Shown here one piece after another: positions 8,527 through 41,200 of a stretch of 46,439 nt of DNA; the stretch's first letter is position 1; the number at the start of each line of letters is the position of its first letter. The notes below the pieces were generated by a model. It did no database searches, was not told the origin of the DNA, and saw only the letters and a program-made list of their open reading frames with translations. Location of the stretch: IMG/VR virus record IMGVR_UViG_3300048562_000013, positions 1 to 46,439 of that record. The stretch is one strand, 5' to 3'. This stretch comes from a virus. Its lineage: Duplodnaviria > Caudoviricetes. The position numbers and the translations under genes were made by a program.

Positions 8527-8597
8527 GGGGGGGTCAAATCTCTGACGACGCTTCGGTTTGCGGACCGGCGCCCCCTGCATTCAGAGGTTTTTTTTCG
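8527..8597. other. Putative cos/packaging-initiation region
   Basis: GGGGGGGTCAAATCTCTG...CAGAGGTTTTTTT between HNH and terS, the usual cos location in HK97-like phages. Confidence 0.45.
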
Positions 8598-9071: not shown

Positions 9072-9090
9072 TCGGGTGGAGGATTGAGAC

Positions 9091-9486
9091 ATGCTGAACA
9101 AGGTCATTCTGATCGGCCATCTCGGCGCTGATGTCGAAGATCGCGTCGGCAATGCGCCTTCGCGCTTCTCGCTGGCCACAACGGAGCGCTGGCGGGACAA
9201 GGATACGGGTCAGGCGCGCGAGCGGACGGATTGGCACCAGGTGGTGATCTTCCACTCTGGCCTGATCGAGATCGCCGAGAAATACCTTCGCAAGGGCTCC
9301 AAGGTCTATGTCGAGGGGCGGCTCGGCACGCGCTCATATGAAGGCCGCGATGGCGTAAAGCGCTATGTGACCGAGATTGTGCTCGACGGGTTCAAGTCCA
9401 AGCTCGTGCTGCTCGATGGCGCCGGCGGTGGTCGTGCGCCTGCGGCGGCGAACGCCGATGAATACGGCGATGTCGAGTATGCCTGA
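9091..9486 (+). CDS. ssb: Single-stranded DNA-binding protein
   Basis: LNKVILIGHLGAD, FSLATTERWRDK..G...ERTDWHQVV, YLRKGSKVYVEGRL, YVTEIV. Confidence 0.96.
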   Translation: MLNKVILIGHLGADVEDRVGNAPSRFSLATTERWRDKDTGQARERTDWHQVVIFHSGLIEIAEKYLRKGSKVYVEGRLGTRSYEGRDGVKRYVTEIVLDGFKSKLVLLDGAGGGRAPAAANADEYGDVEYA

Positions 9487-11200
9487 GTGGGATTTCGCCT
9501 GCCCGGATTGGGTCGAGCGACTGAAGACCGGGCGCTCGCTGGTGCCTGATCTGCCGCTCGATGTCGTCGAGGCCGAGCGGGCGGTGTCCATCTTCAACAT
9601 GTTGCGTCTGCCGGACGTGCCAGGCCAGCCGGCGATGGCAGAGGCCGCGGGCGAGTGGTTCCGCGATATCGCCCGTGCTGGCTTTGGTTCGCTGCTGCCG
9701 CGCCGCGGGCCGCAGGGCGGCACCGTCATGGCGCGCCAGGTGTCCGAGCTGTTCGTGCTGGTGCCGAAGAAGAACTCGAAGACGACGGGCGGCGCGGGTC
9801 TCGTCATCACCGCGGCGATCATGAATGAGCGCCCGAATGCGGAGCTGCTGTTCGTCGGCCCGACACAGGACATCGCCGATCTCGCCTTCCAGCAGGCGCG
9901 CGGCATGATCGAGGCCGATCCGGAGGGCTATCTGCAGAAGCGGTTCCATATCCGCGAGCACCTCAAGACCATCGAGGACCTGACGAACGGGGCCAAGATC
10001 AAGATCAAGACCTTCGACACCAGCGTGATGACCGGCGTCAAGCCGGTGTTCGTGCTCATCGATGAGCTGCACGAGATGTCGAAGAAATCGTATGCGTCCC
10101 GCGTCGTCGGCCAGATCCGGGGCGGTTTGTTGCCGAATCCGGAAGGGTTGCTCGTGTTCATCACCACGCAGAGCGACCAGCCGCCCGCGGGCGTGTTCAA
10201 AGACGAGTTGACCTATGCGCGCGGCATTCGGGATGGACGGATCACCGACAAGGTGAAGATGCTGCCGATCCTCTATGAGTTTCCGGAGGACATGCAGACC
10301 GACAAAGCCATGCCGTGGCGGGACCCGATGAACTGGCCGATGGTGCTGCCGAATCTGGGTCTGTCGATCAACATCGACGATCTGGAAACCCACTATGCGC
10401 AAGCACGCGAGAAGGGCGAGGCCGAAGAGCGCCGCTGGGCGTCGCAGCATCTGAATGTCCAGATCGGCATGGCGATGCATGATGATCGCTGGCGCGGCGC
10501 CGACTATTGGCTTGATGCCGCCGACACGAGCTTGACCCTCGACGGTCTGCTCGACCGTTCTGAGGTGGTCACGGTCGGCATCGACGGCGGCGGCGAGGAT
10601 GATTTGTTCGGCCTGGCCGTGCTCGGTCGCTGCCGCACCAGCCGCGACTGGCTGCTCTGGGTGCATTGCTGGGCTCACACCAAGGTCTTCGAGCGCCGGC
10701 CAGATATCGCGGAGAGGCTGCGCGATTTCGAGACGGAGGGCGACCTGACGGTCTGCACCAGCATGACGGACGCGATCGCCGGCGCCGTCGACATCATCGA
10801 AATGATCCGGAGCCGGGACCTGTTTCCGGAAAAGGCCGGTGTCGGCCTCGACCCGGCCGGCGTCTCGACGCTGCTCGACGAGATCGATCGCCGCGGCGTT
10901 CCAGAGGAACTGCGGGTTCCTGTGTCGCAAGGCTACCGGTTGCAGCCGATCATCTTCGGCTACGAGCACATGCTCGCCGACGGCAGGTTGTGGCATTCGG
11001 GCTCGGCAATGATGGCCTGGTGCGTGAGCAACGCGAAGGTCGAGCTGCAGGGCAATGCAATCCGGATCACCAAGCAGGTATCCGGCAGGGCCAAGATCGA
11101 TCCTCTGATGGCGGCGTTCGATGCCGGAATGCTGATGACTGTCAACCCGCAGCCAGCAGTGCAATATATCGACGTGAGCCGGGAGCTGATGCACATATGA
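9479..11200 (+). CDS. terL: Terminase large subunit
   Basis: VPKKNSKT (Walker A variant), VLIDELH (Walker B), ITTQS, GIDGG, KIDPLMA. Confidence 0.96.
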   Translation: MPEWDFACPDWVERLKTGRSLVPDLPLDVVEAERAVSIFNMLRLPDVPGQPAMAEAAGEWFRDIARAGFGSLLPRRGPQGGTVMARQVSELFVLVPKKNSKTTGGAGLVITAAIMNERPNAELLFVGPTQDIADLAFQQARGMIEADPEGYLQKRFHIREHLKTIEDLTNGAKIKIKTFDTSVMTGVKPVFVLIDELHEMSKKSYASRVVGQIRGGLLPNPEGLLVFITTQSDQPPAGVFKDELTYARGIRDGRITDKVKMLPILYEFPEDMQTDKAMPWRDPMNWPMVLPNLGLSINIDDLETHYAQAREKGEAEERRWASQHLNVQIGMAMHDDRWRGADYWLDAADTSLTLDGLLDRSEVVTVGIDGGGEDDLFGLAVLGRCRTSRDWLLWVHCWAHTKVFERRPDIAERLRDFETEGDLTVCTSMTDAIAGAVDIIEMIRSRDLFPEKAGVGLDPAGVSTLLDEIDRRGVPEELRVPVSQGYRLQPIIFGYEHMLADGRLWHSGSAMMAWCVSNAKVELQGNAIRITKQVSGRAKIDPLMAAFDAGMLMTVNPQPAVQYIDVSRELMHI

Positions 11201-27484: not shown

Positions 27485-27558
27485 AGCGAGCCGATATATT
27501 GCTGTGGAGCGCGGCGATCGGCGCCGGGCTCATTGTGGGATGGGCGATCGTCATATGA
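27481..27558 (+). CDS. 25-aa single-TM peptide
   Basis: TTG start, KRADILLWSAAIGAGLIVGWAIVI*; overlaps both neighbouring genes. Confidence 0.4.
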   Translation: MKRADILLWSAAIGAGLIVGWAIVI

Positions 27559-28229
27559 GGGCACAGGGCGGCACGGCGGTCATGGCGGCGCGCGCTTCGG
27601 CGCCGGATGCCCTGGATTATTTCCCGACGCCGCCATGGGCATCGCGGGCGCTGATCGGCGACGTGCTGCCGCAGCTCGGCGTCGCCTTCCATTATGCCGG
27701 CATGCGGCTGTGGGAACCGGCGGCCGGCGGAGGTCACATGGCGGAAACGTTGCGCCCATATTTCCTCGAGGTCTTCGCCAGCGACGTGCACGATTATGGC
27801 CGCGGCTATGCCGTCGGCTCATTTGTCGGCGAGGGGCCCGACGTGGCGCGCTGCCCTTTCAAGCCGGACCTGATCGTCACCAACCCGCCGTTCAACCGGG
27901 CCATGGAGTTCGCCGATCGCGCCCTCGATGAGGCCCGCGTCGGCGCGGCGCTGCTCGTGCGCTCGGCATGGGCGGAAGGCTGTTTCCGATATCAGCGACT
28001 GTTCCGCGACCGCCCGCCCTCGATGATTGCGCAATTCGTCGAGCGCGTCCCGATGGTGAAGGGGCGATGGGACCCTGACGCGAGCACCGCGACCAGCTAC
28101 GCCTGGTTTGTCTGGCGCAAGGCGGACCGCAGCAAGCGCTGCAGCTATGTTTGGATTCCCGATGGCGCCCGCGTCCGGCACTCGCGGGCGGAAGATCGCG
28201 AACGGTTCGCCGATCGAGATCTGGCCTGA
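27555..28229 (+). CDS. DNA amino-methyltransferase (N6A/N4C)
   Basis: DYFPTPPWA, WEPAAGGGHM, SDVHDYG, IVTNPPF, YAWFVW. Confidence 0.9.
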   Translation: MRAQGGTAVMAARASAPDALDYFPTPPWASRALIGDVLPQLGVAFHYAGMRLWEPAAGGGHMAETLRPYFLEVFASDVHDYGRGYAVGSFVGEGPDVARCPFKPDLIVTNPPFNRAMEFADRALDEARVGAALLVRSAWAEGCFRYQRLFRDRPPSMIAQFVERVPMVKGRWDPDASTATSYAWFVWRKADRSKRCSYVWIPDGARVRHSRAEDRERFADRDLA

Positions 28230-28285: not shown

Positions 28286-28528
28286 TCAGTTCGTCTTGGC
28301 TTTGCTGATACCTCTGGCGACGCAGAAGTTATTCGGGGCGCCATTGACGCCCCAGGAAACTCCACCGCCAGCATGCGGGTAGGCGTAGATATCGCCCATC
28401 CGGAAGCGCTCGCTTTCGGCAAAGCTCGTACGGCGGACCTTCTCCACCAAACGCGTGACTGCGGACTGCGTCTCAGCGTCGAGTGTCTCGAACTCGTCGC
28501 CCATGCTATAGCTGCTCTTGGTTGTCAT
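28286..28528 (-). CDS. Hypothetical protein (80 aa)
   Basis: AAGG SD before MTTKSSYSMGDEF; ends just before the terminator. Confidence 0.6.
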   Translation of the reverse strand: MTTKSSYSMGDEFETLDAETQSAVTRLVEKVRRTSFAESERFRMGDIYAYPHAGGGVSWGVNGAPNNFCVARGISKAKTN

Positions 28529-28559
28529 GGATGGTACCTTCATCTGTGATGACAAGGCC

Positions 28560-28650
28560 TCCGTCGGTGCTTCCAACACCAGCGGGGGCCGCTTATCGGG
28601 CTTCGCCCGTCGCTGCCCTCGCGAGCGGCGAGGGCAGAAAGAGGCGGCTG
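28560..28650 (-). ncRNA. Candidate three-way-junction RNA element
   Basis: GCCGC/GCGGC encloses CTGCCCTCGC/GCGAGGGCAG and CGGGC/GCCCG; a further hairpin follows. Confidence 0.45.
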
Positions 28651-28652
28651 CA

Positions 28653-28844
28653 TCAGCTCTTGTTGCCGAAGATGCGGCTGATCGAGGGCTGGTCGCCAAT
28701 CGTCCAGCGCTCTCGCGCCTTCTCGGCCGCGGCTTCCGCGTCCATCTCCGCCCGTATTTCGGCGGTCATTGTCTTGCCGATCATCGGGCGGGCGACGGCG
28801 AGGCCAACGCGTGCCCAGCCGCGCAACATTTTCTGTCCGTTCAT
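28653..28844 (-). CDS. Hypothetical protein (63 aa)
   Basis: AAAGGA SD directly after the hammerhead. Confidence 0.65.
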   Translation of the reverse strand: MNGQKMLRGWARVGLAVARPMIGKTMTAEIRAEMDAEAAAEKARERWTIGDQPSISRIFGNKS

Positions 28845-28855
28845 GTCGTTTCCTT

Positions 28856-28914
28856 TGGTTGCTCGTCAGGCCGGCGCCACCAGGGCCGGCGACGCTGATT
28901 GCTCAGCGTTTCGC
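28856..28914 (-). ncRNA. Hammerhead ribozyme, type II
   Basis: Minus strand GC-GAAA-C-GCTGA-gcaa-TCAGC-G-TC^-GCCGGC-cctggtggc-GCCGGC-CTGACGA-GC-aacca: full CUGANGA/GAAA/GUC core with stems I and III and a 2-bp stem II. Confidence 0.88.
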
Positions 28915-28945
28915 TTTTAAAAAAGGCGGGGCTTAACGCCCCGCC
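28915..28945 (-). terminator. Intrinsic terminator overlapping the stop of the 51-aa ORF
   Basis: GGCGGGGC-gttaa-GCCCCGCC-TTTTTT on the minus strand. Confidence 0.75.
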
Positions 28946-29088
28946 GCCTCCATCTCCCGTTGCGCTTCGCAGAAGCGCGCCATCGCGGCCATGTATTGGT
29001 TCGGCTTGCCAGCCTCGAGCTTGCGCTCCTCGGCGTGCAGTTTCTTCTGCGCTGCGGCGAACCGGGATTTCAGGGTGCTTTTATTCAT
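28933..29088 (-). CDS. Small basic helical protein (51 aa)
   Basis: Manual translation MNKSTLKSRFAAAQKKLHAEERKLEAGKPNQYMAAMARFCEAQREMEAAGR*; AAGGAG SD. Confidence 0.7.
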   Translation of the reverse strand: MNKSTLKSRFAAAQKKLHAEERKLEAGKPNQYMAAMARFCEAQREMEAAGR

Positions 29089-29228
29089 CGTCGTCTCCTT
29101 TGTTTGGTTGCCTTCCAGGTCTTCCGGCTCCTGCCGGTCCCTCCTGGCTTTTCGGGTCTGCCTACCGCCTCCGCTTGGGTCTGTGGCTTGGTAGGTCTGG
29201 GCTATCCCGTCGCCCTGTCTATGTACTG

Positions 29229-29350
29229 AATATAGCTATTTTCCCCTGAAATGTAAACACGTGTAGGTACAAAATGTGCTAATAAATTCCGTATACGGAT
29301 CACTTTTTCGTGATCGACAGCAATTAAGTTTTGTATTTACGTGTGCCTAC
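29229..29350. promoter_or_regulatory. Leftward sigma70-like promoter and putative RHH operators
   Basis: TTTACA-17-TATATT (minus strand, 29257-29229); GTAAACAC-gt-GTAGGTAC (29253-29270); GTATTTAC-gt-GTGCCTAC (29333-29350); palindrome TCCGTATACGGA (29288-29299). Confidence 0.65.
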
Positions 29351-29370
29351 GTTTGAGTTAGCCAGTGCCT

Positions 29371-29553
29371 ATGAGCAAACCCACGAAGAAGATGTATAAT
29401 TTCCGGTTCGATGATGACCTCATCGACAGCATCGATGCATGGCGCGAGCTGCAGCCGGTGCCCCCGTCACGGACGGATGTGTTCAGGATTGCGGTCGAGC
29501 GTTTTCTAGCCGAGGTAGCTGGCCAGAGCCGGCGAGCATCCAAGGCGAAATAG
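29371..29553 (+). CDS. Ribbon-helix-helix (Arc/CopG-like) regulator
   Basis: KMYNFRFDDDLIDSIDAWR..QP..PSRTDVFRIAVERFL. Confidence 0.85.
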   Translation: MSKPTKKMYNFRFDDDLIDSIDAWRELQPVPPSRTDVFRIAVERFLAEVAGQSRRASKAK

Positions 29554-29569
29554 CTCATCACTGGCGCTC

Positions 29570-29884
29570 TCAAATCGGAAAGTGCGGCGGGATCGCCGGA
29601 TACGGATAGGGCGATGCCGCTGGTGTAACGCCAGCCGGCGAAGCGCGGTAAACGCCGAGCGAGGCGCCTGTGGCGGGGTCGATCAGAATGAAGGTGATCG
29701 GCTGGCCAAATGCGGTTGCCTGCGCCACAGCAGCCTGCGCGGTCATCGCCGGCAAGCTGGGAATGACCGGCAGCGAGGGCGCTGACGGCGCCGGTCGCTT
29801 CAGCGCCGCGGCGAGGATGCCGATCAGCACCAGCGCGCCCGCCGCGATCGCCAAGCCTAGAAACAGCCCCTCGCCCTCGGTCAT
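29570..29884 (-). CDS. Small membrane protein, Pro-rich
   Basis: N-terminal TM LFLGLAIAAGALVLIGILAAAL; coupled to the upstream stop. Confidence 0.6.
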   Translation of the reverse strand: MTEGEGLFLGLAIAAGALVLIGILAAALKRPAPSAPSLPVIPSLPAMTAQAAVAQATAFGQPITFILIDPATGASLGVYRASPAGVTPAASPYPYPAIPPHFPI

Positions 29885-30657
29885 CAGAGCTGGACCGCCA
29901 TCGATCGCAGGACACGGTAGAGCGCCTCGCACTCCCGCGTCGGCGGCTCGCCCCACATGTCGATCGGGATCACCAGGCCTTCCGTCTCCGCGAACAGGAT
30001 CGGGTCAATCTTGGCGACGGCGTTCTGCGCTTCGACATTGGCCATGGCGGCGTCCGCGATCCGACGCGCGGTGGCCTCGATGTCGAGCACCTTGATCGCC
30101 TCGGCAGGTGCGCCGATCCGCATGTCGTAGCCGGCGAGCCGGACGCGATAAGATGTCTCCAGGATGTCGGCCGGGGGCTGGGGCAACGCCAGGGTGATCA
30201 TATGCGCGCTGTCCCGCTTGCTCTCGACGAAATCGGGGAACAGCATCGGCAACAGCGTGCCATTGCGCTCGCGCTGACGGATGATGGCGGCCGTCGCGTT
30301 GGCGATCTCGCGGGCGCTCGGCATGCCGTCATGCATCAGCCAGCGGCTCCGGCGGGCCAATCGCTGCACCTCGCTGATCAGCGCCGACGCATCGCCGAGC
30401 GCGCGGCCATCAACCGGCATCCGGTAGACGCGGGCGGCCTTGGCGGTCTCCGTCCATGCGTGGTCGGAAAAGAAGCCATAGACGATGCTGACGCCGACGC
30501 TCTTGAGCCGTTCGATGTGCTCACGCTGGGCAGGATAGCGGTCGATCGCGCGGGGCAGCGTCTTGATGTCACCGCGATATTCGGCGCCGGGGCGCCGCGA
30601 AGACGCGGGAACTGTCGCGGGCACGCCCGCGCGAGATAGCTTGATCGGCAAGTTCAT
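29884..30657 (-). CDS. Hypothetical protein (257 aa)
   Basis: AAAGGA SD; coding-like composition; ..DPILFAE....VIPIDMWGE. Confidence 0.7.
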   Translation of the reverse strand: MNLPIKLSRAGVPATVPASSRRPGAEYRGDIKTLPRAIDRYPAQREHIERLKSVGVSIVYGFFSDHAWTETAKAARVYRMPVDGRALGDASALISEVQRLARRSRWLMHDGMPSAREIANATAAIIRQRERNGTLLPMLFPDFVESKRDSAHMITLALPQPPADILETSYRVRLAGYDMRIGAPAEAIKVLDIEATARRIADAAMANVEAQNAVAKIDPILFAETEGLVIPIDMWGEPPTRECEALYRVLRSMAVQL

Positions 30658-30678
30658 CGGTTGTCCTTTCGGGGTTGG

Positions 30679-31497
30679 TCAGTTTGGGCAGGGAGTGCGG
30701 CGGGTGCGGCCGCCAACCGGCCAGACGCCGCGCTGGCCACCATCGTCGCCGGATGCAGACCACCAGCTGTCGCCGGTCGAGCCGTAGACCTCGCGGGCGA
30801 TGCGGCGCTCGAAATCGCGGAAGCCGACATGCTGGGTGCTCTCGCGCTCGCGGCCCTGCTCGTAAAGCCAGCAATGATGGCTTTCATGGGCGAGGGTGCG
30901 GGCGCGGGCGATCTTGCCGGTGCGCCAGCCGCGGGGGAAAATCTGCGGCGTGCAATCGTGCGAGTAGACGTAGGCAAGTGTATTGCCGCCATCGCGCGTC
31001 AGCTCGCGGATGCCGCGCACGAGGCGCATGTTCTCGATCAGCTCGGGCGATCCGCTGGCGGCGAAGTCGGCGAGCGTTTCGCGCATCGCGGTCTTGAACT
31101 CCGCACCGCCGTAAATCGGGATGTGCGCCAGAAAAGCCGTGTCGCCGCGCGAGCCGCCCTCATTGCCGGCGAGCTTATCGCCCTTCACGGCCGCCTCGCC
31201 CTCTCCGAAGCGCTCGCCGAGTTTTGGGTCGCGCGGTGTCGATGCGGGCTCGGGATCGGCTTGCTGGCCGGCGGGCGTGCGCTCGGATGTTGGCGCTCGG
31301 CTCTGGATATTCGTCAGCAGCAGCGTGACGACGGCGCCGCCGATCGCGGCCATGATCAGGGCGAGGATGCCGCGCGGAAGTTCGAAGTCTCTCAAATGCT
31401 CGAGCGCATACCGGACCAGCACCAGGCCGGAAAGGACGGCAGCGACAATCATCACGAGAATCGGCAGCACGCCGGGCTCGCCAAAAAGCGTCATCAC
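30679..31497 (-). CDS. Membrane-anchored putative zinc metallopeptidase
   Basis: Two N-terminal TM helices; TLAHESHHCW (HExxH). Confidence 0.6.
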   Translation of the reverse strand: MMTLFGEPGVLPILVMIVAAVLSGLVLVRYALEHLRDFELPRGILALIMAAIGGAVVTLLLTNIQSRAPTSERTPAGQQADPEPASTPRDPKLGERFGEGEAAVKGDKLAGNEGGSRGDTAFLAHIPIYGGAEFKTAMRETLADFAASGSPELIENMRLVRGIRELTRDGGNTLAYVYSHDCTPQIFPRGWRTGKIARARTLAHESHHCWLYEQGRERESTQHVGFRDFERRIAREVYGSTGDSWWSASGDDGGQRGVWPVGGRTRRTPCPN

Positions 31498-31685: not shown

Positions 31686-31940
31686 ATGGGGCGGAACTCA
31701 TTGATTCGACTTACAGGTTTGCAATGCCGATTGGCGCGGACAGCGCTGCGGTGGACCATGGAGGATCTAGCGAAACACGCTGGGGTCTCGAAAAACACGG
31801 TCAATCACTTGGAAAAGGATCAACCGTCCAACCTGTCCACGCAGGAACAGCTACGCCGCACATTCGAGGCGCATGGAATTGAGTTCATCAACTCGAATGG
31901 ATTGCGGGTGAAGAAGTCGCCGAGCGGCGAGGGCGGCTGA
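31686..31940 (+). CDS. XRE-family HTH regulator
   Basis: QCRLARTALRWTMEDLAKHAGVSKNTVNHLE...LRRTFEAHGIEF. Confidence 0.9.
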   Translation: MGRNSLIRLTGLQCRLARTALRWTMEDLAKHAGVSKNTVNHLEKDQPSNLSTQEQLRRTFEAHGIEFINSNGLRVKKSPSGEGG

Positions 31941-32233: not shown

Positions 32234-32509
32234 TCAACCTGCCGCCTTCGCCTCAGCTTTGAGCCGCTCCTCAAGATCTTCGAGCGCGATCTCGATCACC
32301 TCGACCTTGGATTTCTCCAGCCAGACGCTGAGCCGCTCCAGGCGCTGCCGCGTCAGCTCCGTGGTCTTGATGGCAATCTGAGCCGGGCGCGTCGTACGGC
32401 GCGGGGCGCCCCTGCTGGCCGAGGCCTTCGCTTGGCTTTCACGGCCGAGGCGGCGGTCCAGCGTATCGGTGCCCAGCCGATCAAACGGGTTTCTCGTCTC
32501 TTCTCTCAT
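32234..32509 (-). CDS. ParG-like RHH partition partner
   Basis: Overlaps the parA 3' end; flexible N-terminus then QIAIKTT..TRQRLERLS...SKVEVIEIALEDL. Confidence 0.7.
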   Translation of the reverse strand: MREETRNPFDRLGTDTLDRRLGRESQAKASASRGAPRRTTRPAQIAIKTTELTRQRLERLSVWLEKSKVEVIEIALEDLEERLKAEAKAAG

Positions 32510-33125
32510 CACCCACCTCCTCCAATGCTGCCCATAGCGCCGAGATCTCGGCTCTAGCCTTCGCGCTGATCTCATTGCCGGCCTTGCCGGCGGCATCAGC
32601 GCGGACGTAATCGCTTCGCTCCGCCACGATAAGCGGCTCCACTGCCGAACGGCTGCGCAACAGGTCCGCTGCATGCTTGACCAGTGACGATCGCCGATCG
32701 GCGCGGTTGATCACATAGACCGTGCGGTCCGCCTTGCCGGCCCTCTCAATCAAATCGCGCGCCGCGCCTTGCGCTTCAAGGTCCTTTATCGACGCCTGCA
32801 CAACCACGACGACGCAATCGGCGGCGTGGATCGCCTCGCTGACGACCGCCATATCCGAGCCCGGCGTATCGATCACCATCACATCGCGCTCGCTGCGATG
32901 CTCCCTGATGTCCCGCAAGGCGCGAATCATCGACCCGCGGCTGGCGAGCATCATCGGGTTCTCCGGTCCGCCGCGGCGGCGCCACCACTCGGCCGTCGAT
33001 TGCTGGGGATCGAGATCCGCAAGGAACACCGAGCGGCCGAGCCTTGCCGCTTCCACGGCGAGGCACTCGGCCAGTGTCGATTTTCCACAGCCGCCCTTGG
33101 TGCTTATCAGCGCCACCACGAGCAT
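32481..33125 (-). CDS. parA: ParA-family (type Ib/ParF-like) ATPase
   Basis: KGGCGKST, DLDPQQS, VIDTPG, ADCVVVV, VINR; no N-terminal HTH. Confidence 0.93.
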   Translation of the reverse strand: MLVVALISTKGGCGKSTLAECLAVEAARLGRSVFLADLDPQQSTAEWWRRRGGPENPMMLASRGSMIRALRDIREHRSERDVMVIDTPGSDMAVVSEAIHAADCVVVVVQASIKDLEAQGAARDLIERAGKADRTVYVINRADRRSSLVKHAADLLRSRSAVEPLIVAERSDYVRADAAGKAGNEISAKARAEISALWAALEEVGDERRDEKPV

Positions 33126-33159
33126 GTTCGGGCCTCGCAATCCATCACATTCGCGGCAA

Positions 33160-33262
33160 GTCTAGACAGAAATCTAGCCATCTGTCTAGACGCGGTGTTT
33201 TCGCGCTGGACATCGCGCCCGCGTCCATGATATCCATTTGTCTAGACAAATTGGCTAGACAG
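33160..33262. repeat. GTCTAGAC-type repeat cluster (putative parS/operator)
   Basis: GTCTAGAC (33160), ATCTAGCC (33172), GTCTAGAC (33184), TTTGTCTAGACAAA (33237-33250), GGCTAGAC (33253); ~12-bp spacing within each group. Confidence 0.8.
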
Positions 33263-33274
33263 ATGAGGCACACA

Positions 33275-34411
33275 ATGACACAGGCGGTTTTGAAGGAGGA
33301 AATGCCCGCCGGCCGCAAGCTCTGCTGGGGCTCGCTCGGCGCGGGAAGTCTTGGCTTGGCGACCGGCCTCGCCGCGGTGGCGGTGGAGATTTCACGGAAC
33401 TATGAGTTCGGCGCCGCGAAGGGGCCGATCGTCGGCGCGACCTATGCGCTGTTCGCTGTCGGCCTGGCGGTGGTGCCAGCGATCGCACAGAAAGCGGGCT
33501 GGAATGCCATGCTGCGGACGCTGTTTGCGGTCTGCATGGCAATGACGGCCTATTTCGGCGTCGCCTATTACTCGGCCGGCATCCTGGCCAAGGCCGATGC
33601 GGCCAAGACGCGCATGGCGGCCTATCGCGATGCACGTGCTGAGATCGCAGCCGCACAGAAGGCGCGCGACGACGCCGAGGCCGAAGCCACAGCGATCGCC
33701 GAGACGGCGTCAGTCGAGGATCTGCTCGCGATCGTCGCGCGCGAGCGTGAACTGGCGCAGATCGAGGCGAAAGACCGCGGTGGCCGCGGCAAGCTGGCGA
33801 AGGCCCACGAGGATGCCGAGCAGGCGGCCATGACCCGTGTGCCGGCTGCGCGTGCCAAGGCGGCGGCTCTCGCCCGCGCCGACGCCGCTAGCGCTCGTCT
33901 CGCCAAGGCGCGTGACGATGCCAAAGGCGGCACCGTCACGACGGCGCCGCTGGCGACGCTGATTGCCGAGCAGACCGGCGGCAATGCCGAGCTGATTGCA
34001 TCGGCGATCGACCTCGGCGAGCCGCTGTTCATGGTGCTTGGCATGCTGTTCTTTGCGGCTCTGATCGATAAGTCGCTGTCGACGCTGATCTGCGGCCTCG
34101 GCCGGCGTGAGGTTGTCGCCGAACTGCCGGCGGCACCGGCCGCGAAGCTGGCTCAGAAGGCGAAGGCCAAACCGCAAGCGCCGCTGAGTGATTGCGAGCT
34201 GATCGCCCTGTTCATTGGCCAGCTTCGGATGGGCCAGGGCGAGCTGACGCCGAAAGAGCTGTACAGCCATTTCTGTGTGTTCTGGATGGCGCGGGCATCG
34301 GAGCGGGCTCTGCCGAGCCATCGCACGCTGGCCTCGTCGCTCACCGCCAAGGGCGTGGCGCGCAATCGGCGTGGCGGGCAGACGCGCTACGAGGTTGCTC
34401 TCGCCGCGTAA
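33275..34411 (+). CDS. Multi-TM/coiled-coil protein with a C-terminal D5-like winged-helix
   Basis: Three N-terminal TMs, Ala-rich coiled coil, a fourth TM, then FI...GELTPKELYSHFCVFW...PSHRTLASSL..KGV..R.GGQTRY. Confidence 0.7.
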   Translation: MTQAVLKEEMPAGRKLCWGSLGAGSLGLATGLAAVAVEISRNYEFGAAKGPIVGATYALFAVGLAVVPAIAQKAGWNAMLRTLFAVCMAMTAYFGVAYYSAGILAKADAAKTRMAAYRDARAEIAAAQKARDDAEAEATAIAETASVEDLLAIVARERELAQIEAKDRGGRGKLAKAHEDAEQAAMTRVPAARAKAAALARADAASARLAKARDDAKGGTVTTAPLATLIAEQTGGNAELIASAIDLGEPLFMVLGMLFFAALIDKSLSTLICGLGRREVVAELPAAPAAKLAQKAKAKPQAPLSDCELIALFIGQLRMGQGELTPKELYSHFCVFWMARASERALPSHRTLASSLTAKGVARNRRGGQTRYEVALAA

Positions 34412-34428
34412 GCAGTCGAGAGCAGAAT

Positions 34429-34463
34429 GGGCGGGCCGGCAGGCCTCGACTGCCGGCCCGTTC
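34429..34463. terminator. Hairpin between convergent genes
   Basis: GGCGGGCCGGCAG-gcctcga-CTGCCGGCCCGTT. Confidence 0.6.
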
Positions 34464-35806
34464 TATTTCAGCCAGCGCACCCGCGACACCTCGGCGCCAT
34501 TCTCCAGCCTCACGCCCTCCAGATCATACCGCAGCCTGGTCTTGTCGCTGCCCAGATTGCCGCCGGCGATCGAGAGCAGGCGCGACGCTTCGGCGGGCCG
34601 CTGCTTCGCCAGCGGGTGATCGGGATCGACGCCGGCATTGAGTATCATGCGGGCGCGCTGGGCATAGACCTTCGGGCCGCCGAGATGCTCGGCGCTGTCA
34701 CCGCGCTTGCCGGCTTCCTTGTGCATGATGCCGAGCAGGGCGATGCCGTTCGCTTGGCAATAGTCGAGCAAGGGCCGGAGCTTGGCGCGGGCTTCGACCT
34801 GGCGCGCTGCCTCCGCGCCGAACATCTCCCGGAAAGGCGACAACACGATCAGTCGCACAGTGTCGAGCTTGGCGACCTGGCGCTGCAGCTCGCGCATGCC
34901 ATCGGCGCTCGACAGATCCATCGGCACCGATGCCGCCAGAACGCGGCGCATATCGGCGCCGGCGGCGATCAGGCGGCCCCGCGTGACCGGCTCGGGATCT
35001 TCGGCCTCGATCACCAGCGCCGAGCCGGGCGCCTCTCCGGGCGCTCCGCACGGCCATGCGGCGCCGCGCGTCACTCGTGCGACGATATCGAGCGCCACGG
35101 TGCTCTTGCCGGCCTTGGGCGCGCCCATGATCGCGGTGAACTGTCCCGCGGGCAGGATGCCGGGCCAAAGCCAGGGCAATGGTGCCGCATCCATCTGGTC
35201 GCCGCGCTTGAAAGCATCGTCGACCGGCGCGTCTTGGCCGCTCGCGCGCAGCCGATCTCCGACCAGGTGGTAAGCCGGCGTCTTGATCGGCGGCAACCAG
35301 GTCACCGGGAATCGCCCGGCGAGCCGGATGCCGGTCTGGCGAAACATGATGGTGCCCGGCAGCGGCACCGGCTCCCCGACGGCGTCCTTGCCCTTCTGGG
35401 CCTTGACCAGACGCGTGACCAGGCGCCGCGCTTGCGCCTCCTGGATCGGCGCAGCCAGCTTCCAAATGCAAGTATAGTCGTCGGCGCAGAGCATCAGCTG
35501 CGGCGGCGGGTCAAGTGCCGCCGGGCTGCCCTGCAGCGGCACTCGGCCGGCGATCCAGCTGTGACCGCCCTCGGCGATCGCCGGCAGCATCGCGAACACC
35601 GACCGGCCGGCCAGCTGGTGCCCCCTGATCCACTCGACCATTGGCGCGGCCGTATTCGGCCCGAAGGCGCGCGGCGTGCCGCCGCTGATCAGCCGCCACG
35701 GCGGCGCGCCCAGTCGCTTCAAGAATGCAATTGCTAGTTGTGGGTTCAATCCTGGCAGCGTCGGGCCGAACGTTCGGACGGGTGATCGCATTGCATCCTT
35801 CAGCAT
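34463..35806 (-). CDS. Degenerate RepB'-primase / AAA_25 (RepA-like) helicase fusion
   Basis: PWLWPG.LP.G, GAPKAGKST, WP.G, EAED, RLIAAGAD, LIVLSP, IMH; N-terminal PPPQ..WKL..P...LPGT resembles RepB' primase. Confidence 0.75.
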   Translation of the reverse strand: MLKDAMRSPVRTFGPTLPGLNPQLAIAFLKRLGAPPWRLISGGTPRAFGPNTAAPMVEWIRGHQLAGRSVFAMLPAIAEGGHSWIAGRVPLQGSPAALDPPPQLMLCADDYTCIWKLAAPIQEAQARRLVTRLVKAQKGKDAVGEPVPLPGTIMFRQTGIRLAGRFPVTWLPPIKTPAYHLVGDRLRASGQDAPVDDAFKRGDQMDAAPLPWLWPGILPAGQFTAIMGAPKAGKSTVALDIVARVTRGAAWPCGAPGEAPGSALVIEAEDPEPVTRGRLIAAGADMRRVLAASVPMDLSSADGMRELQRQVAKLDTVRLIVLSPFREMFGAEAARQVEARAKLRPLLDYCQANGIALLGIMHKEAGKRGDSAEHLGGPKVYAQRARMILNAGVDPDHPLAKQRPAEASRLLSIAGGNLGSDKTRLRYDLEGVRLENGAEVSRVRWLK

Positions 35807-35889
35807 GCAGAGCCTATGCCGAGCGCCATGCTCAGCTACATTGTAACATTCGACGCTTTACAAAAACGCGAGAATGACGATCCGCGAAA

Positions 35890-36026
35890 AGTCCAATGGG
35901 ACCGTCCTCATGGATGATCCCATGGGCGGATATCCGCCCATCCTCCCACTGATGCTCCCACTGTGCATGCGTTATCCTCCCTCTCCGCATGCACATCATG
36001 CAGTGCATGATTTTCCCGATTATCGG
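35890..36026. repeat. Palindrome and short-repeat cluster (putative ori/binding region)
   Basis: ATGGGCGGATATCCGCCCAT (35922-35941), TGTGCATGCG/CGCATGCACA, ATCATGCAGTGCATGAT, CTCCCACTG x2. Confidence 0.6.
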
Positions 36027-37124
36027 TCATGCCCTATGGGGTGTGCCAGCTAAACCATCGGTTGCAGGCTCGAATTCGACATCGATCGGATCGGACTCGG
36101 CGGTGAAGCGGATGCCGGTATAGAATTGGCCGCCAGACTTGATCTTGCCGATCCGTCCGCCTGATGCCGAAGCTCGAGATGTGAGCAGGTCGCCGAACTT
36201 TTTCGAGCTGAGCGGCGGCTGCGCATTCATCCGGCATGTCTGCGCATAGTCCTCATAGGCGGCGCTCGCCGACAGCCGCCCGGCGGGATCGTAGACGATG
36301 CGGCCATTGAACCAGCTGTCGAAGACGGCTTGTGGCGTGAGGATGGCGCCCGCAGCATCGGGCATCATGCCGGCCGCCGCTCCGCCGGTCGAGGGCGAGG
36401 CCTCGGAATTCGGCAGGCGCACGGCCTCGGCGATGCCGAGCATGGCGAAGCGGGCGATCCATCCGCAGCCGGCGACGGCGACGAGACCAAGCAGTGCCAG
36501 GATGACCGTCCCGCCCGTCGTGGCGGGCCTGCTGTCGAACCAGCTCTTTGTGGCTCGGCTGTACCGATCACAGCGCTCAGCCTGCCATGTGTTCTCCGGG
36601 GCCGTGCAGCGCCCACTATGGCGCCACATCGCCTCGCTGATGCCGTAGCGCTCGCGCTGCTCGATGACGCGGGCGCTCTCGATCCTCGATTTCGGCGGTC
36701 CGGAGAGCGTGGCGGCATAGATGACGCCGATCGCCGCGACGCCCGCCGCAATGCACCACGCGACCAGGACCAGGCGCGCTTCATGGGGATAGTTCCGCGA
36801 CGTCGTTGCATGCACGAGCGGCAGGCCGACGACGGCAAGCGCCAGGCCGACGGCCACAAGGATCGCCACGGCCTTGTCGCCGGGCGTGGCGCCGATGCTG
36901 CCGGCCGAGACGACCAGCCAGATCGCGACGCCCGCGCCGAGCAGGATCGAGGCGAGCCCGACCGTGCGGCCGATGGTATGAGCGCCGAGCTCGGCGACGT
37001 CGCGGGCATCCCGCCTCGTCTGCGCCGCTTGCGGCTGGGTGATGACGATGGGCGCCGCCGGGACTTGGTAGGGCGGATAGTGCGGCGACGGGCTCGGGTA
37101 ACCCGGATAGAGAGGGTATGTCAT
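36027..37124 (-). CDS. Multi-TM protein with a C-terminal D5/P4-primase-type winged-helix
   Basis: About four TMs; FDSWFNGRI.YDPAGRLSASAAYEDY...C.......SSKKFGDLL...KIKSGGQFYTGIRF. Confidence 0.75.
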   Translation of the reverse strand: MTYPLYPGYPSPSPHYPPYQVPAAPIVITQPQAAQTRRDARDVAELGAHTIGRTVGLASILLGAGVAIWLVVSAGSIGATPGDKAVAILVAVGLALAVVGLPLVHATTSRNYPHEARLVLVAWCIAAGVAAIGVIYAATLSGPPKSRIESARVIEQRERYGISEAMWRHSGRCTAPENTWQAERCDRYSRATKSWFDSRPATTGGTVILALLGLVAVAGCGWIARFAMLGIAEAVRLPNSEASPSTGGAAAGMMPDAAGAILTPQAVFDSWFNGRIVYDPAGRLSASAAYEDYAQTCRMNAQPPLSSKKFGDLLTSRASASGGRIGKIKSGGQFYTGIRFTAESDPIDVEFEPATDGLAGTPHRA

Positions 37125-37666
37125 CTGCGTCTCCGCCTCCCATGGCGTTCAAAGATGTCATTGAGGCCTTCTTCGACTAAATCAGCGACGATCGCGCCGA
37201 TTTCGTTGGCGACTTGTCGGATATTCGCTCTTATTTCGGCTAGATCGGTCAGCTCAAAGACTTCGCTTGTTTCATCGATCGGGAAGGTCTTTTTAGCCTT
37301 GGCTCGTCGGGTAGATGGCGAGTCATCCGCGATCCCGACCAAGTGCAATCCGACATAAAAAACGGAGCCGTTGGATTTCATTTTGCCAACTTTGGCATTC
37401 CTCAACACGTAGGCACTGAAAAGGTCGCCAAACTTCTTATGAGATGTACAAAGCGCGCTCCTGGCGCGATAGCTCTCATACGCATCGCTCGCTTTGATGC
37501 GGCTGCCGGCGTTGAACGTTACGGACGCTGCAAACCATTTTTCGAAGGCCGCTATCGTTGCGGCTTCGTCCTCGAAGCGGGCCAACGTCACCGCGTGCCG
37601 CTCCATCAGATTGGCTAGATGGCCGACCGGGCCGATTGGCTCTCCGTTGATCGTCTTGATTGGCAT
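37121..37666 (-). CDS. Soluble D5/P4-primase-type winged-helix protein
   Basis: FEKWF...GSRIKASDAYESY...SHKKFGDL...KMKSNGSVFYVGLHL; clearly paralogous to the adjacent gene's C-terminus. Confidence 0.75.
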   Translation of the reverse strand: MPIKTINGEPIGPVGHLANLMERHAVTLARFEDEAATIAAFEKWFAASVTFNAGSRIKASDAYESYRARSALCTSHKKFGDLFSAYVLRNAKVGKMKSNGSVFYVGLHLVGIADDSPSTRRAKAKKTFPIDETSEVFELTDLAEIRANIRQVANEIGAIVADLVEEGLNDIFERHGRRRRR

Positions 37667-37715
37667 CAATGCCGTTCCTTTCATCGGCGGGAGGCCGCGA
37701 AAGGACGGGCCAACC

Positions 37716-37949
37716 CTAGTGCATTGTCTCAGCCAGCTCGCGGCTGATGGTGCGGGTCCTCGCTACGAGCGACCGCGCGGTGAGTTCCATGAAGTCGCGG
37801 AAGGCGTCGGGGGCCTCGTCCGGCCCCATGCCATGCGCCGCCATGATGCGGCACATGCATTCGGTGAGCGCCGCAAGGGCTGCCGGCGGCGCCGCGTCAT
37901 CGCAAAGGCGAAGCAAGTCATCATGAAGCTCTTCTTGAAATAACGGCAT
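37716..37949 (-). CDS. Hypothetical protein
   Basis: GGAGG SD; first gene of the wH operon. Confidence 0.6.
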   Translation of the reverse strand: MPLFQEELHDDLLRLCDDAAPPAALAALTECMCRIMAAHGMGPDEAPDAFRDFMELTARSLVARTRTISRELAETMH

Positions 37950-38328: not shown

Positions 38329-38372
38329 TGGTTGGGGGACTAGGACTCGAACCTAGATTGACGGAGTCAGAG
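38329..38372 (-). mobile_element. attP core = 3' half of tRNA-Gln(CTG)
   Basis: Minus strand CTCTGACTCCGTCAATCTAGGTTCGAGTCCTAGTCCCCCAACCA: anticodon loop CTG, T-arm and CCA; no 5' half; 10 bp from the integrase stop. Confidence 0.9.
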
Positions 38373-38382: not shown

Positions 38383-39531
38383 CTATCCTTTCGCGTTGCT
38401 GGATATGCGTTGCGTGGCAAGGGATTTGTTAGAAGTCCGCCGATCTTCAATCTTGAGAACGTGCCGGGATTTGTGCGACCGCTCGACAGCCTGATGAAGC
38501 TGGTCGACGCCGAGGAAGGCGTAGACCTTCTGCGTGACCTCCACGCCGCTGTGACCAAGCCAGGCCGAAACCTCCTCGATCGACATGCCGTCGTCGCGCA
38601 GCCGGCGCATGCCGCATGTGCGCCGGAGTGCATGGAAGCTGACCGGCGTGATCTGTGCCTCCTCGCAGCGCCGCTGCAGTGGAACATACATCTGCGAATA
38701 GCGTCGGCCGTCGCGATGCCAGAAGACGAGGTCGGTATGCCGCGAGCGGGGCAGAGCGGCGAGCAGCTTCAGTGAGCGCTTCAGGATCGGCACCGACCGG
38801 GCGCGGCTGTTCTTGGCGGTCGACTTCACCACGCGCGCCTCGCGCCGCTTCAGGTCGATCTCTGGCCAGCGCAGACTGAAAATCTCACCGTCCCGAAAGC
38901 CGGCATCGATGGCGAAGGCGAAAGCGGCCTCCTGCATCTGATAGCCGTGCCGATCGCGCGGATGGGTCGCCTCGCGCCGGAGCTTCTGCAAATGGTCGAA
39001 TAGCTGCTCTTCATCTGCGTTCGGCAGGAACTCGTCGCGGGGCTCACTCTCGACCAGCCCCCGCTTGCGTGCCTTGCGCAGATAGGCCTTCGCCGGGTTG
39101 ATCTCGATCCACTCCCAATCCTCGGCGAGTGAATAGACGAGTGCAAGGCAGACCAGGTCGCGGCGGATGGTGGAATTGGTGACGCCTGCGGCACGGCGCG
39201 CGACCTCGAAATCGCTGAGCGCCGCGCTGCCAATCTCATCGAGATATTTGCCGATCAGGTGCTCTGCGAGATTCATCAGACTGACCCGGTAGCGCTTGGC
39301 GGACGTTGGTTTGATCCGTGGAAAGTGCTCGTCGATGAAGCGATTGACGGCCTCGTCGAATTTGCGGCGCGGCTTGTCGCCCCATTTGCCGGCTTTGACA
39401 TCGGCGACGAAGCTCAGCAGCCGCTCGCCCGCAACTCCTTTAAGCGGCGTATCAAGGGAACGTCGGTACTCTTTGCCGCGGTACGAGACGCGCCCCCACC
39501 AGATTTCCCCCCGCTTGTAGATTTTGGCCAT
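38383..39531 (-). CDS. int: Tyrosine integrase
   Basis: GFRDGEI (R), KNSRAR (K), HALRRT (HxxR), LGHS, VYA (Y); N-terminal arm-binding region. Confidence 0.96.
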   Translation of the reverse strand: MAKIYKRGEIWWGRVSYRGKEYRRSLDTPLKGVAGERLLSFVADVKAGKWGDKPRRKFDEAVNRFIDEHFPRIKPTSAKRYRVSLMNLAEHLIGKYLDEIGSAALSDFEVARRAAGVTNSTIRRDLVCLALVYSLAEDWEWIEINPAKAYLRKARKRGLVESEPRDEFLPNADEEQLFDHLQKLRREATHPRDRHGYQMQEAAFAFAIDAGFRDGEIFSLRWPEIDLKRREARVVKSTAKNSRARSVPILKRSLKLLAALPRSRHTDLVFWHRDGRRYSQMYVPLQRRCEEAQITPVSFHALRRTCGMRRLRDDGMSIEEVSAWLGHSGVEVTQKVYAFLGVDQLHQAVERSHKSRHVLKIEDRRTSNKSLATQRISSNAKG

Positions 39532-39722
39532 GACTTCGACGCCCCCTTACCCCACCACTTCAGAAACCCCTCCCGCTCGAAACGCCAACCGGTGCGAGGG
39601 CCTTGCGGTTGGATTGCCCATTTCACCTGCTTATCCGCCGCGAGCCGAAGGAAATAGCGCTCGCTAAAGCCGGTCATCTCGGCGAGTTCGCGCGCAGTGA
39701 GCATAGGCTTTTCCGTGGTCAC
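39414..39722 (-). CDS. xis: Excisionase-like HTH protein
   Basis: MLTARELAEMTGFSERYFLRLA...GWRF; overlaps the int 5' end. Confidence 0.8.
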   Translation of the reverse strand: MTTEKPMLTARELAEMTGFSERYFLRLAADKQVKWAIQPQGPRTGWRFEREGFLKWWGKGASKSWPKSTSGGKSGGGASRTAAKSTDVPLIRRLKELRASGC

Positions 39723-41200
39723 GCGACGGCCTCCAATCCAAATACCGGCGCGGTATCGATCCGCTGGATCTGCGGCACATAGTTCGCCCGCACCAGCGCT
39801 TCCGCCATCGGCGGGCAGACGCTGTTGCCACACATCCGGATCGATGCCGTCTTGGTGAGGGTGATCTCATGGCCGTCCGGCATGACACCGCGGTCGACGA
39901 TGTAGCTGTCTGGGAAGCCTTGCGCGCGAAACAGTTCGCGCACGCTGAGCATGCGCATGCCGATATCGACGATCTCGTAGGGCTCCCCCTCGACCATGAC
40001 GAGGCCGAAGCGGGCTTTTGTGCTCGCGGTGTGCAGCGGATCGGCGATGTCCTGATCCTGGCCGCCGGTGCCGTAATACTTCATGAGGAAGGCGCGGACT
40101 TCGGCCTGGTGCCAGCCGCCGGCCGTCACGGTGCGCGCGGGTTCTTCCGGCGCCGACATACGGCGGTCGCTGCCCTTCATGTGCAGCAAGCCGGCAGAGA
40201 CGACCGCTTGCTGTGCGCCGGTGCTGGTCACGGTTGAGAGCGGATGGCGCGCATCGCGGGCAACGACGCCAAGATTGTGCTGGGCAAGAAATGCCGCCAC
40301 GAGCGCCTGTTCGCCGCGCTGCGCCGTGGTGATCGTCCGCAGCGGCTCGTCGACGTCATAGACGCGCTCGTCGCCCTGATGCGTGACCGGCACCAGAAAG
40401 GGCCTGGCCGCGTCGAGCACGTAGCGCTGCACGCCCTTGGCGATCCGCGCCATGGTAGCCTCGGCGAGCGGGCGATTGACGCCGGCGGCGCGGCCTTCTT
40501 CCCGCGTTAGAAAAATGCTGTGGCATGGCAGCGACCAGTCGATGATCTCGGCGGCGGTGCGCCATGGAAGCTTCCGACCGGCGATGACGTCCGGATCTGT
40601 CGGCTTGCCGTGCGTCGGCTTCGGCCAGACGATTTTTTGCCCGTCGCGCCTGGCGATCAGGAACAGCCGCTTGCGGATCGTCGGCGCGCCGTAGTCGCAG
40701 GCCCTCAGCTCGCGCCACTCGACGCGGTAGCCCAGCCGGCGCAGCTCGCTGACCCAGCGATTGAAGGTCGCGCCGCAGCGGTCGGGGCAAGGCTTCCATT
40801 TGCCGTCGACCGTGGCGATCAGTGGCCCCCAGTCGGCGAATTCCTCGACGTTCTCCAGGATGATGACGCGGGGGCGGACGCGCTTCGCCCAGAGCACGAC
40901 CGTCCATGCCAGATCGCGGATCTCGCGCTTGACGGGCTTGCCGCCCTTGGCCTTGCTGAAGTGCTTGCAGTCAGGCGAGAACCAAGCCAGCCCGACCGGG
41001 CGCCGGCCAACAACCTCCATCGGGTCGACGTGCCAAATATTCTTCGATAGATGCACGGTCTCCGGATGGTTCGCGGCGTGCATCGCGAGTGCTTCGGCGT
41101 CGTGGTTGATGGCGTAATCCGGGCCGCGGCCCAGCGCGAGCGCGATGCCGGTGCTGGCGCCGCCGCCGCCGGCAAAACTGTCGATGACGAGTTCAAGCAT
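39719..41200 (-). CDS. DNA cytosine-5 methyltransferase
   Basis: DSFAGGGGAS, SPDCKHFS, ENV, YGAPTIRKRLF, RMLSVREL..AQGFP, GNSVCP. Confidence 0.95.
   Translation of the reverse strand: MLELVIDSFAGGGGASTGIALALGRGPDYAINHDAEALAMHAANHPETVHLSKNIWHVDPMEVVGRRPVGLAWFSPDCKHFSKAKGGKPVKREIRDLAWTVVLWAKRVRPRVIILENVEEFADWGPLIATVDGKWKPCPDRCGATFNRWVSELRRLGYRVEWRELRACDYGAPTIRKRLFLIARRDGQKIVWPKPTHGKPTDPDVIAGRKLPWRTAAEIIDWSLPCHSIFLTREEGRAAGVNRPLAEATMARIAKGVQRYVLDAARPFLVPVTHQGDERVYDVDEPLRTITTAQRGEQALVAAFLAQHNLGVVARDARHPLSTVTSTGAQQAVVSAGLLHMKGSDRRMSAPEEPARTVTAGGWHQAEVRAFLMKYYGTGGQDQDIADPLHTASTKARFGLVMVEGEPYEIVDIGMRMLSVRELFRAQGFPDSYIVDRGVMPDGHEITLTKTASIRMCGNSVCPPMAEALVRANYVPQIQRIDTAPVFGLEAVA

Follow-up and report, generated by a model that had tools for sequence, protein, structure and literature searches.

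IMGVR_UViG_3300048562_000013, a virus record of 46,439 bases (Duplodnaviria; Caudoviricetes) that was analysed whole and is called the window below, is a temperate siphophage, and it raises the question of what a tailed phage might do with proteins that join a winged-helix (wH) domain of the replication type to a membrane anchor. An earlier note, made from the letters of this DNA alone, had read three genes with such a domain, a ParA pair and a primase-helicase as a system that tethers DNA to the membrane or segregates it, and the open reading frames that it listed are all present where it placed them. Our analysis gives about an even chance to a reading by analogy, in which the membrane proteins A and B and the ATPase H would together tether DNA at the membrane and drive it along the reproductive hypha, in the working manner of Streptomyces Spd and TraB. 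The four genes that carry the argument are listed here, with transmembrane abbreviated as TM and ribbon-helix-helix as RHH.

33275..34411, + strand: gene A, three TM helices, a periplasmic helical hairpin/coiled coil, a further TM helix and a divergent winged helix (predicted topology; family alignments)
34463..35806, - strand: gene H, RepB'-like N-terminal domain and RSF1010 RepA-like RecA-fold ATPase (Pfam, VIA, Atlas features, alignment)
36027..37124, - strand: gene B, three TM helices, a short periplasmic hairpin with a Cys pair, a further TM helix and an RFX/P4-type winged helix at residues 264-340 (AlphaFold, VIA)
37121..37666, - strand: gene C, soluble protein with an N-terminal B-type winged helix at residues 40-110 and C-terminal RHH-like helices (wH profile)

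Winged helices and membrane anchors in the window

The C-terminal domain of B is predicted to fold as a winged helix of the RFX/P4 type. In the AlphaFold model (40-row alignment; mean predicted local distance difference test score, pLDDT, 83.8), long helices at residues 31-77, 81-108, 113-140 and 203-239 precede a compact domain at 264-340, and VIA matched that domain to RFX5 (Z 11.4, root-mean-square deviation (rmsd) 2.2, 77 aligned), to RFX1 (Z 10.1) and to 1KA8, the P4 origin-binding domain (Z 8.3, rmsd 2.5, 77 aligned), with Foldseek TM-scores by target of 0.71-0.76, though at E>1e-3. The resemblance to the D5/P4 domain that the earlier note had proposed is therefore borne out, as the nearest structures of B are the P4 alpha origin-binding domain and RFX. 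The fusion of such a domain to membrane helices was also confirmed, with four hydrophobic stretches in B and, in A, three above threshold and a fourth apparent in the family alignment.

A wH profile built from 39 B relatives, with the window row excluded, was searched against the 68 called phage proteins and recovered B (E 1e-32) and C (E 4e-16) and missed A (E 0.11). The motif that had been assigned to all three genes (F..W/F...G.....Y..Y...S.KKF...G..Y.G) fits B and C, whereas A ends in a divergent version with no KKF and no YxG. Hidden Markov model comparison of A with the wH profile (E 0.11 and 0.017) lies below clear detection, and HHalign with the wH of A alone gave a probability of 73-79% and a score of 29-30 against a shuffled maximum of 15. 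The C-terminal position claimed for the domain holds for B; in C it lies at the N-terminus instead. C has no membrane helix, its RHH-like part matches Pfam Antitox_RHH under the cut-off (E 6e-4), and no homolog of it was found in the relative search; judged from its sequence, C is probably a regulator or competitor.

One protein family with a chromosomal member

A profile of B also found a gene that lies among chromosomal housekeeping genes, called the core gene here, whose ten aligned rows have a mean column identity of 65%. Rvan_3311, annotated as hypothetical or as "DNA primase/NTPase C-terminal domain", belongs to the same cluster as the R. udaipurense copy. Profile alignment identifies A and B as distant paralogs and A, B and the Rvan_3311 family as homologous. 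The end-to-end HHalign probabilities were 99.5% for B and core, 97.9% for A and core and 95.3% for A and B, and the respective scores of 167, 100 (99.9) and 68 compare with block-shuffled maxima of 27, 37 (36.7) and 29. All three are built alike, with a helical hairpin set between three membrane helices and a fourth, and with a linker leading to a C-terminal domain. Exactly two Cys residues occur in the hairpin in 24 of 31 rows of the A alignment, 26 of 40 of the B alignment and all 10 of the core alignment, and A of the window is without them.

Protein search returned nine relatives of A, and 60 relatives of B at E<=1e-3 among cluster representatives, the query counted. The A profile had matches in 19 of the 75 genomes of the family of genome G001, and a widened version in 6 of 401 genomes of the order. 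Pattern scans of genomes and metagenomes found no relative of A; profile searches of whole genomes gave many, so the pattern scans are insensitive. Relatives of A may end in a wH, in a helix-turn-helix (HTH; L061), in a small helical domain of another kind or in a short basic helix; in the alignments this putative DNA-binding end is exchanged and the membrane part retained. For that membrane part no curated family was found in Pfam or PHROGs (31 A and 40 B members scanned by Pfam), apart from a weak DUF4407 match in 3 of the 31 A members.

In a quick tree of 56 rows the core group and the A group each fall on one side of a branch (support 99), the mobile copies diverge fast, and accessory copies surround the core; neither a root nor a direction of capture is claimed from it. 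The family varies further. One core-like membrane part (L268:7921-10344, 807 residues) has a long, low-complexity acidic tail in place of the winged helix, and many copies of 310-340 residues, matched in the Rhodomicrobium family over core-profile positions 1-256, have the membrane part alone. A further paralog group (L127, L128, L133), present in part of the family, looks like another conserved chromosomal type.

Lineage distribution of the core gene

The core profile was built from ten Rhodomicrobium-family sequences and its searches scored only the best candidates per genome; family names follow record titles and the GTDB taxonomy. The core ortholog was found in 72 of 75 genomes of the Rhodomicrobium family (E<=1e-30), the same family from which the profile was built, and in 99 of 101 genomes of the family of Filomicrobium insigne (Filomicrobium/Hyphomicrobium), 96 of them at E<1e-70. 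The family of Methyloligella solikamskensis gave 4 matches in 101 genomes (best 2e-54) and the rhizobial family of Antarcticirhabdus one weak, wH-only match in 81, with no core-level copy in either. Across an order-wide sample the profile matched 69 of 401 genomes (63 at E<1e-70). A class sample of 351 Alphaproteobacteria yielded four matches, of which only that in G001 was full length; the other three were C-termini of D5/P4 primases, so that outside the lineage the only matches, at the level of the wH, were D5/P4 primase-helicases. Named records carrying the core gene were mostly Rhodomicrobium, Dichotomicrobium, Hyphomicrobium, Filomicrobium and metagenome-assembled genomes (MAGs) of Hyphomicrobiaceae, with a few stray labels (best 80 of 461; best 80 of 120).

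Table 1 of PMC7996495 scores hyphae as present in Hyphomicrobium and as absent in M. solikamskensis and Methyloceanibacter caenitepidi, and Dichotomicrobium is described there as budding with hyphae. A role of the module in bringing DNA through the hypha to the daughter cell is likely, because the chromosomal relative is near-universal in two families known to bud through thin hyphae and was not found at core level in a related family described without them. In the open-access literature, supplements not covered, no description of Rvan_3311 was found, nor of a membrane-anchored winged helix in connection with Hyphomicrobium or hyphae.

Around the core gene, a fixed synteny with DUF1489 was considered and rejected, the two lying within 3 kb in 18 of 80 loci. 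Its commonest neighbour (24 of 80 loci, L139-L218) is an upstream gene transcribed divergently; the sole copy scanned at that position (L136:8416-9180) has a PG_binding_1 domain, a possible envelope partner. One genome (G080) holds nine core-profile matches, several of them full length.

Gene H and its coupling to B

The motor part of H matches Pfam AAA_25 (E 3e-26) and, by VIA, RSF1010 RepA (1g8y, Z 19.8). Its N-terminal domain has no Pfam match, and residues 18-190 were placed by Atlas language-model features at 0.95 to RepB_primase clusters, 17 of 30 matches being with PF16793. The structural model of this domain is poor (mean pLDDT 61), and in the structure searches the ATPase domain took up the results. 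The N-terminal alignments show neither a DxD nor a His column that is conserved and, judged by these presumed catalytic motifs of primases, the RepB'-like domain is apparently without catalytic residues. In the motor, Walker A is intact and GxGKS and ExED are invariant or nearly so, and Walker B reads LSP, with Asp replaced by Ser in five of the six H sequences aligned, that of the window included.

The earlier note had taken H for a degenerate primase-helicase and the module for split and repurposed replication domains of D5/P4 kind. An AAA_25/RepA motor was confirmed, joined to a domain that is probably RepB'-like; a D5 type was not. D5 and P4 use a superfamily 3 (SF3) helicase, and the module is not a split D5, because the motor of H is of the RecA/RepA type and no D5_N was found. 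The comparison with the C-terminal wH of P4 alpha and poxvirus D5 (PDB 1KA8, PF03288) and with RFX domains is thus one of fold (Z 8.3 to 11.4 for B), whereas the fusion to a membrane anchor and the lack of D5_N and of an SF3 helicase set the module apart. H itself resembles the RepB' primase and RepA helicase of RSF1010 and RepB_primase-AAA_25 fusions, its probable RepB'-like domain and its motor standing in the same order. H differs from these in having no visible primase motifs, in usually carrying Ser for the Walker B Asp, and in a type of motor that is exchangeable for a HerA-like one and coupled to a membrane protein.

This coupling was followed in nine mobile B-type loci, picked from regions fetched round the strongest matches; L126 and loci of the chromosomal types were not included. 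B is followed in every one of the nine by a gene with the RepB'-like domain, which mostly overlaps B. Six of these genes, one of them frameshifted, join AAA_25 to that domain; the other three (L124, L125, L132) have another C-terminal part, HerA/TrwB-like by Pfam in L125 and L132. Since several B-type elements have Prim-Pol, DUF927, VapE or Toprim genes of their own, H probably does not act as their replicase. A pattern at the N-terminus, at first taken as a mark of B, fits 10 of 40 B rows and all 6 of the motor-coupled loci, but it was drawn up once these had been seen and is not used as evidence.

Mobile settings of the accessory copies

Accessory copies were found on unlike elements: prophage or head-gene loci (the window, L053, L055, L057), where tail genes may also adjoin, integrated elements with ParA and integrase (L259, L269, L270, L484, with a RepA gene as well in L269 and L270), relaxase elements, four of them with a coupling protein (L261, L262, L265-L267), and Prim-Pol/DUF927/VapE elements (L122-L124, L132). 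Small membrane genes, a four-TM protein and a motor adjoin one another in L119, L121-L125 and L132; the window is without the small TM genes. Recurrence elsewhere, which the earlier note had set against random accretion, was observed: L049 has Xre-B-H-A in the order of the window and no ParA, and L123 reads small TM genes-B-H-ParA-RHH-like-4TM-DUF927. ParA as a fixed part of the system was not upheld, as it lies within 4 kb of 3 of 23 A-type genes and 1 of 9 B-type genes, on contigs of which some are short.

Three scans of IMG/VR viral contigs yielded no relative of H, A or the core protein; PLSDB plasmids gave none of B or the core protein, and INPHARED phages none of the core protein. In L049 a second A-type gene lies directly after chromosomal dnaA (8337-11076), 4 kb from the B-H-A cassette. 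A-type genes also stand by short portal-capsid-HK97gp10 clusters with integrase or DUF927 genes (L053:3018-10297, L054, L056, L057:9521-17808), a setting resembling that of capsid-forming satellites.

Putative partition genes, candidate DNA sites and phage setting

The further features of the window that bear on the module are as follows.

31686..31940, + strand: Xre-type HTH regulator, probably part of the module (Pfam HTH_3; a 49% identical homolog lies beside B in L049)
32234..32509, - strand: 91-residue putative RHH partner of ParA (overlaps the parA stop)
32481..33125, - strand: short ParA-family ATPase, type Ib-like, without N-terminal HTH (phrog_164 E 1e-31; Pfam CbiA/AAA_31/MipZ)
33158..33262, no strand: palindrome array between parA and A, candidate RHH operator/centromere
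35922..35941, no strand: perfect 20-bp palindrome in the gap between B and H; longest of the phage and a candidate binding site
38329..38372, - strand: 44-bp 3' fragment of tRNA-Gln(CTG), likely attachment (att) core adjoining the integrase and bounding the accessory region
38383-39531: integrase

The ParA of 214 residues, with Walker A at about residue 10, was correctly recognised in the earlier note, as its phrog_164 and Pfam matches show. For its RHH partner the picture is divided, since the gene in the window has no Pfam match and the genes at the equivalent position in L046 and L050 match Antitox_RHH. The gap between parA and A holds copies of GTCTAGAC at 33160, 33184 and 33240 plus two degenerate ones, the copy at 33240 lying within a 16-bp perfect palindrome (33236-33251). 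TCTAGA has only three sites in the whole phage, all in this array, and the three-copy level was reached in 1 of 2000 dinucleotide shuffles. The short ParA, the overlapping small gene for a putative RHH protein and the upstream palindrome array resemble type Ib plasmid partition systems, from which the set differs in being carried by an integrase-bearing phage and in being an inconstant companion of the membrane genes. Where the window has its 20-bp palindrome, directly after the B stop codon, L049 has seven tandem 11-bp direct repeats (3305-3385). An adjacent clt-like cis repeat array as a general companion of accessory copies was rejected: an 8-mer in three or more copies occurs in 3 of 41 upstream and 3 of 38 downstream flanks against 43 of 557 and 40 of 558 for other genes, with no enrichment (P>0.5).

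PHROG scans of the window showed an HK97-like head, a siphovirus tail, lysis genes, methyltransferases, an integrase and an excisionase-like gene, and the module sits in the accessory region between the lysis genes and att. Among 18 different genomes the att-like fragment matched best, at 98%, in G034 (holding record Rhodomicrobium sp. R_RK_3) and G035. It matched at 90-93% in three other genomes of the family of G034 and in three Methyloligella/Methyloceanibacter genomes and at 78-86% in the remainder, and was absent in two; the gene matched was tRNA-Gln(ctg) in all four loci scanned, G034 included. The integrase has its top genome match, at 44%, in a Rhodomicrobium MAG. The host probably belongs to Rhodomicrobiaceae, because both the fragment and the integrase match genomes of the Rhodomicrobium family best.

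Elsewhere in the phage, a leftward accessory operon of unknown genes (28286-31497) includes a 272-residue two-TM protein (30679-31497) and a 257-residue protein (29884-30657), with no convincing Pfam, PHROG or PADLOC match, and the three DNA methyltransferase genes lie at 5198-6076, 27504-28229 and 39719-41200.

Proposed function and alternative explanations

A protein that is repeatedly acquired by unrelated elements and is chromosomally universal in a lineage points to a problem of that lineage which any DNA molecule would face, and the obvious candidate for that problem is passage through the reproductive hypha. For Hyphomonas, Jung et al. 2019 (PMC6650430) describe chromosome passage through the hypha as occurring by an unknown mechanism and suggest a DNA translocase; in R. 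vannielii, transport of up to chromosome size is reported to persist in deformed hyphae, its controlling factors being given as unknown (PMC10259793). We propose that A and B could be membrane DNA tethers or channel subunits that hold element DNA at the inner membrane, with a predicted N-in topology that would place the disulfide-bearing hairpin in the periplasm and the wH in the cytoplasm, where it may bind the DNA of its own element. H, a predicted ring ATPase, would be the coupled motor that helps DNA via the hypha into the bud and along multicellular arrays. Its inactive RepB'-like domain would be an adaptor or DNA-binding module that joins the RecA-fold motor to B, as suggested by its occurrence with an AAA_25 motor in some genes and a HerA/TrwB-like one in others, and by replication genes that are often separate. 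C would be a soluble regulator or a competitor. The ParA/RHH pair and the TCTAGA array would form an optional partition unit of type Ib that acts on the excised circle. The chromosomal ortholog would do an equal job for the chromosome, and unrelated elements would capture their own copies because all of them meet the same hyphal bottleneck.

The Spd-like reading had already been offered by the earlier note, and it gains an independent argument from the phylogenetic profile of the chromosomal ortholog; it remains an analogy between descriptions and is no claim of homology. As described in PMC4447253, SpdB2 is a four-TM, pore-forming protein that binds double-stranded DNA, is needed for intramycelial spreading and occurs on some actinophages. 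The SpdB2 of pSVH1 and its counterparts in actinomycete integrative conjugative elements are comparable, by that description, in being four-TM, coiled-coil, DNA-binding proteins of about 400 residues, with small membrane genes and a ring DNA motor adjoining, carried by plasmids, by integrative elements and by some phages in a filamentous host. In contrast to SpdB2, the coiled hairpin in the present module is predicted to be periplasmic and the DNA-binding domain to be a wH of the RFX/P4 type. The motor resembles RepA or HerA, not the FtsK-like TraB, and follows an apparently inactive RepB'-like domain; the host is Gram-negative, and a core chromosomal ortholog exists.

Several points weigh against a hyphal tether and motor. 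The lineage profile amounts to about one gain and one loss and could track any other lineage trait, most of the genomes sampled are MAGs of unknown shape, and the best-studied stalk-budding genus, Hyphomonas, was not among the groups sampled by name. An integrase-ParA element in each of the two Methyloligella isolates contains an accessory copy, and the core gene is present in three MAGs submitted as Methyloligella(ceae) (G127, G186, G124), two of which fall into small separate families. Some accessory copies have no recognisable DNA-binding domain (L269), and hydrolysis by H may be poor, given its usual Walker B substitution. The five-gene cassette is not conserved as a unit, ParA being inconstant, H lying within 4 kb of only 2 of 23 A-type genes and C having no homolog. 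Finally, a phage with an integrase would ride the chromosome as a prophage, and the module may be cargo from another element.

An unlikely alternative is that A, B and the core gene are transmembrane transcription regulators, whose Cys-bridged periplasmic hairpin would sense an envelope signal and whose wH would control promoters, for instance those of element induction or of a developmental programme, with H and ParA merely regulated neighbours. Membrane segments and a DNA-binding domain in one chain are what define such regulators in PMC10269533. The conserved Cys pair would fit a sensor, and A is often a lone gene, divergent from parA across the palindrome array. RFX-type and P4 wH domains bind specific sequences, which also suits a regulator. 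ToxR/CadC-like proteins likewise unite a membrane anchor, a periplasmic domain and a DNA-binding domain, whereas A and B have four TM helices, the wH is C-terminal and in B of the RFX type, and B-type copies are coupled to a motor gene. In each of the nine mobile B-type loci followed, B runs into or directly adjoins a motor gene whose N-terminal domain is conserved, which suggests a complex over a regulon. Moreover, repeat arrays beside accessory copies are not enriched, and several copies have at their end a short basic helix or no folded DNA-binding domain.

Rather less probable is horizontal transfer from cell to cell, in which B and small membrane proteins would form a channel and the RepB'-motor would pump double-stranded DNA like TraB, or the protein would be a transfer accessory or entry-exclusion factor. 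The layout of small genes with two or three TM helices, B, motor and replication genes recalls actinomycete integrative conjugative elements, the partners of B in L125 and L132 are HerA/TrwB-like, other copies lie near coupling proteins and relaxases, and copies are present in Methyloligella, which has no described hyphae. Transfer leaves unexplained why a chromosomal ortholog lies among housekeeping genes in nearly all genomes of the lineage. The loci scanned showed no recognisable gene for an outer-membrane channel, and the window lacks the small TM genes and belongs to a tailed phage, which does not need transfer of this kind.

The earlier note had also offered membrane effectors, and we consider these very improbable: A and B would sense foreign P4-like origins or replicating DNA through the wH and depolarise the cell, with H as sensor ATPase, in anti-phage defence or superinfection exclusion. 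The location in the accessory region, the membrane-plus-sensor architecture and the fast divergence of mobile copies are in keeping with such a role, which fits poorly with a conserved, near-universal chromosomal copy unlike defence genes. A, B, C, H and the core protein have no PADLOC match, although absence from that library does not exclude defence, and the HerA-like partners match only generic DndH/HerA ATPase models there. Least credible of all is a region in decay, pieced together from other elements and without a shared role for its genes in the phage, for which three transcription units, the lack of homologs for C and small open reading frames, the inconstant ParA linkage and the lack of viral relatives in the IMG/VR scans could be cited, and against which stand the intact state of all frames and the recurrence of the gene orders seen in L049 and L123.

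Implications for hyphal budding bacteria

Parts of the proposed tether and motor have known relatives (the P4/RFX wH, RepB', RepA and type Ib par), and for the combination with a lineage-wide core gene we could name no matching system. In a bolder form, to which we give distinctly less than an even chance, the Rvan_3311 family would be the missing machinery that anchors the chromosome of budding Hyphomicrobiales and hauls it through the hypha, and the phages, plasmids and integrative elements of these bacteria would have captured it time and again, re-targeted its DNA-binding domain and added a dead-primase adaptor and an exchangeable ring motor, so as to pass their own DNA into buds and along multicellular arrays. 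If true, this would be a Gram-negative, independently built counterpart of the intramycelial spreading of Streptomyces. The open question of how a chromosome transits a thin reproductive hypha now has one candidate gene, Rvan_3311, and it is directly testable, as the species in question has markerless deletion tools. The unrecorded mobile module of a membrane-anchored winged helix and an inactive-primase-motor fusion, common to unrelated element types, could in turn supply stable vectors for Rhodomicrobium and Hyphomicrobium, and even if its proteins were regulators, Rvan_3311 would stand as an uncharacterised, lineage-specific core gene.

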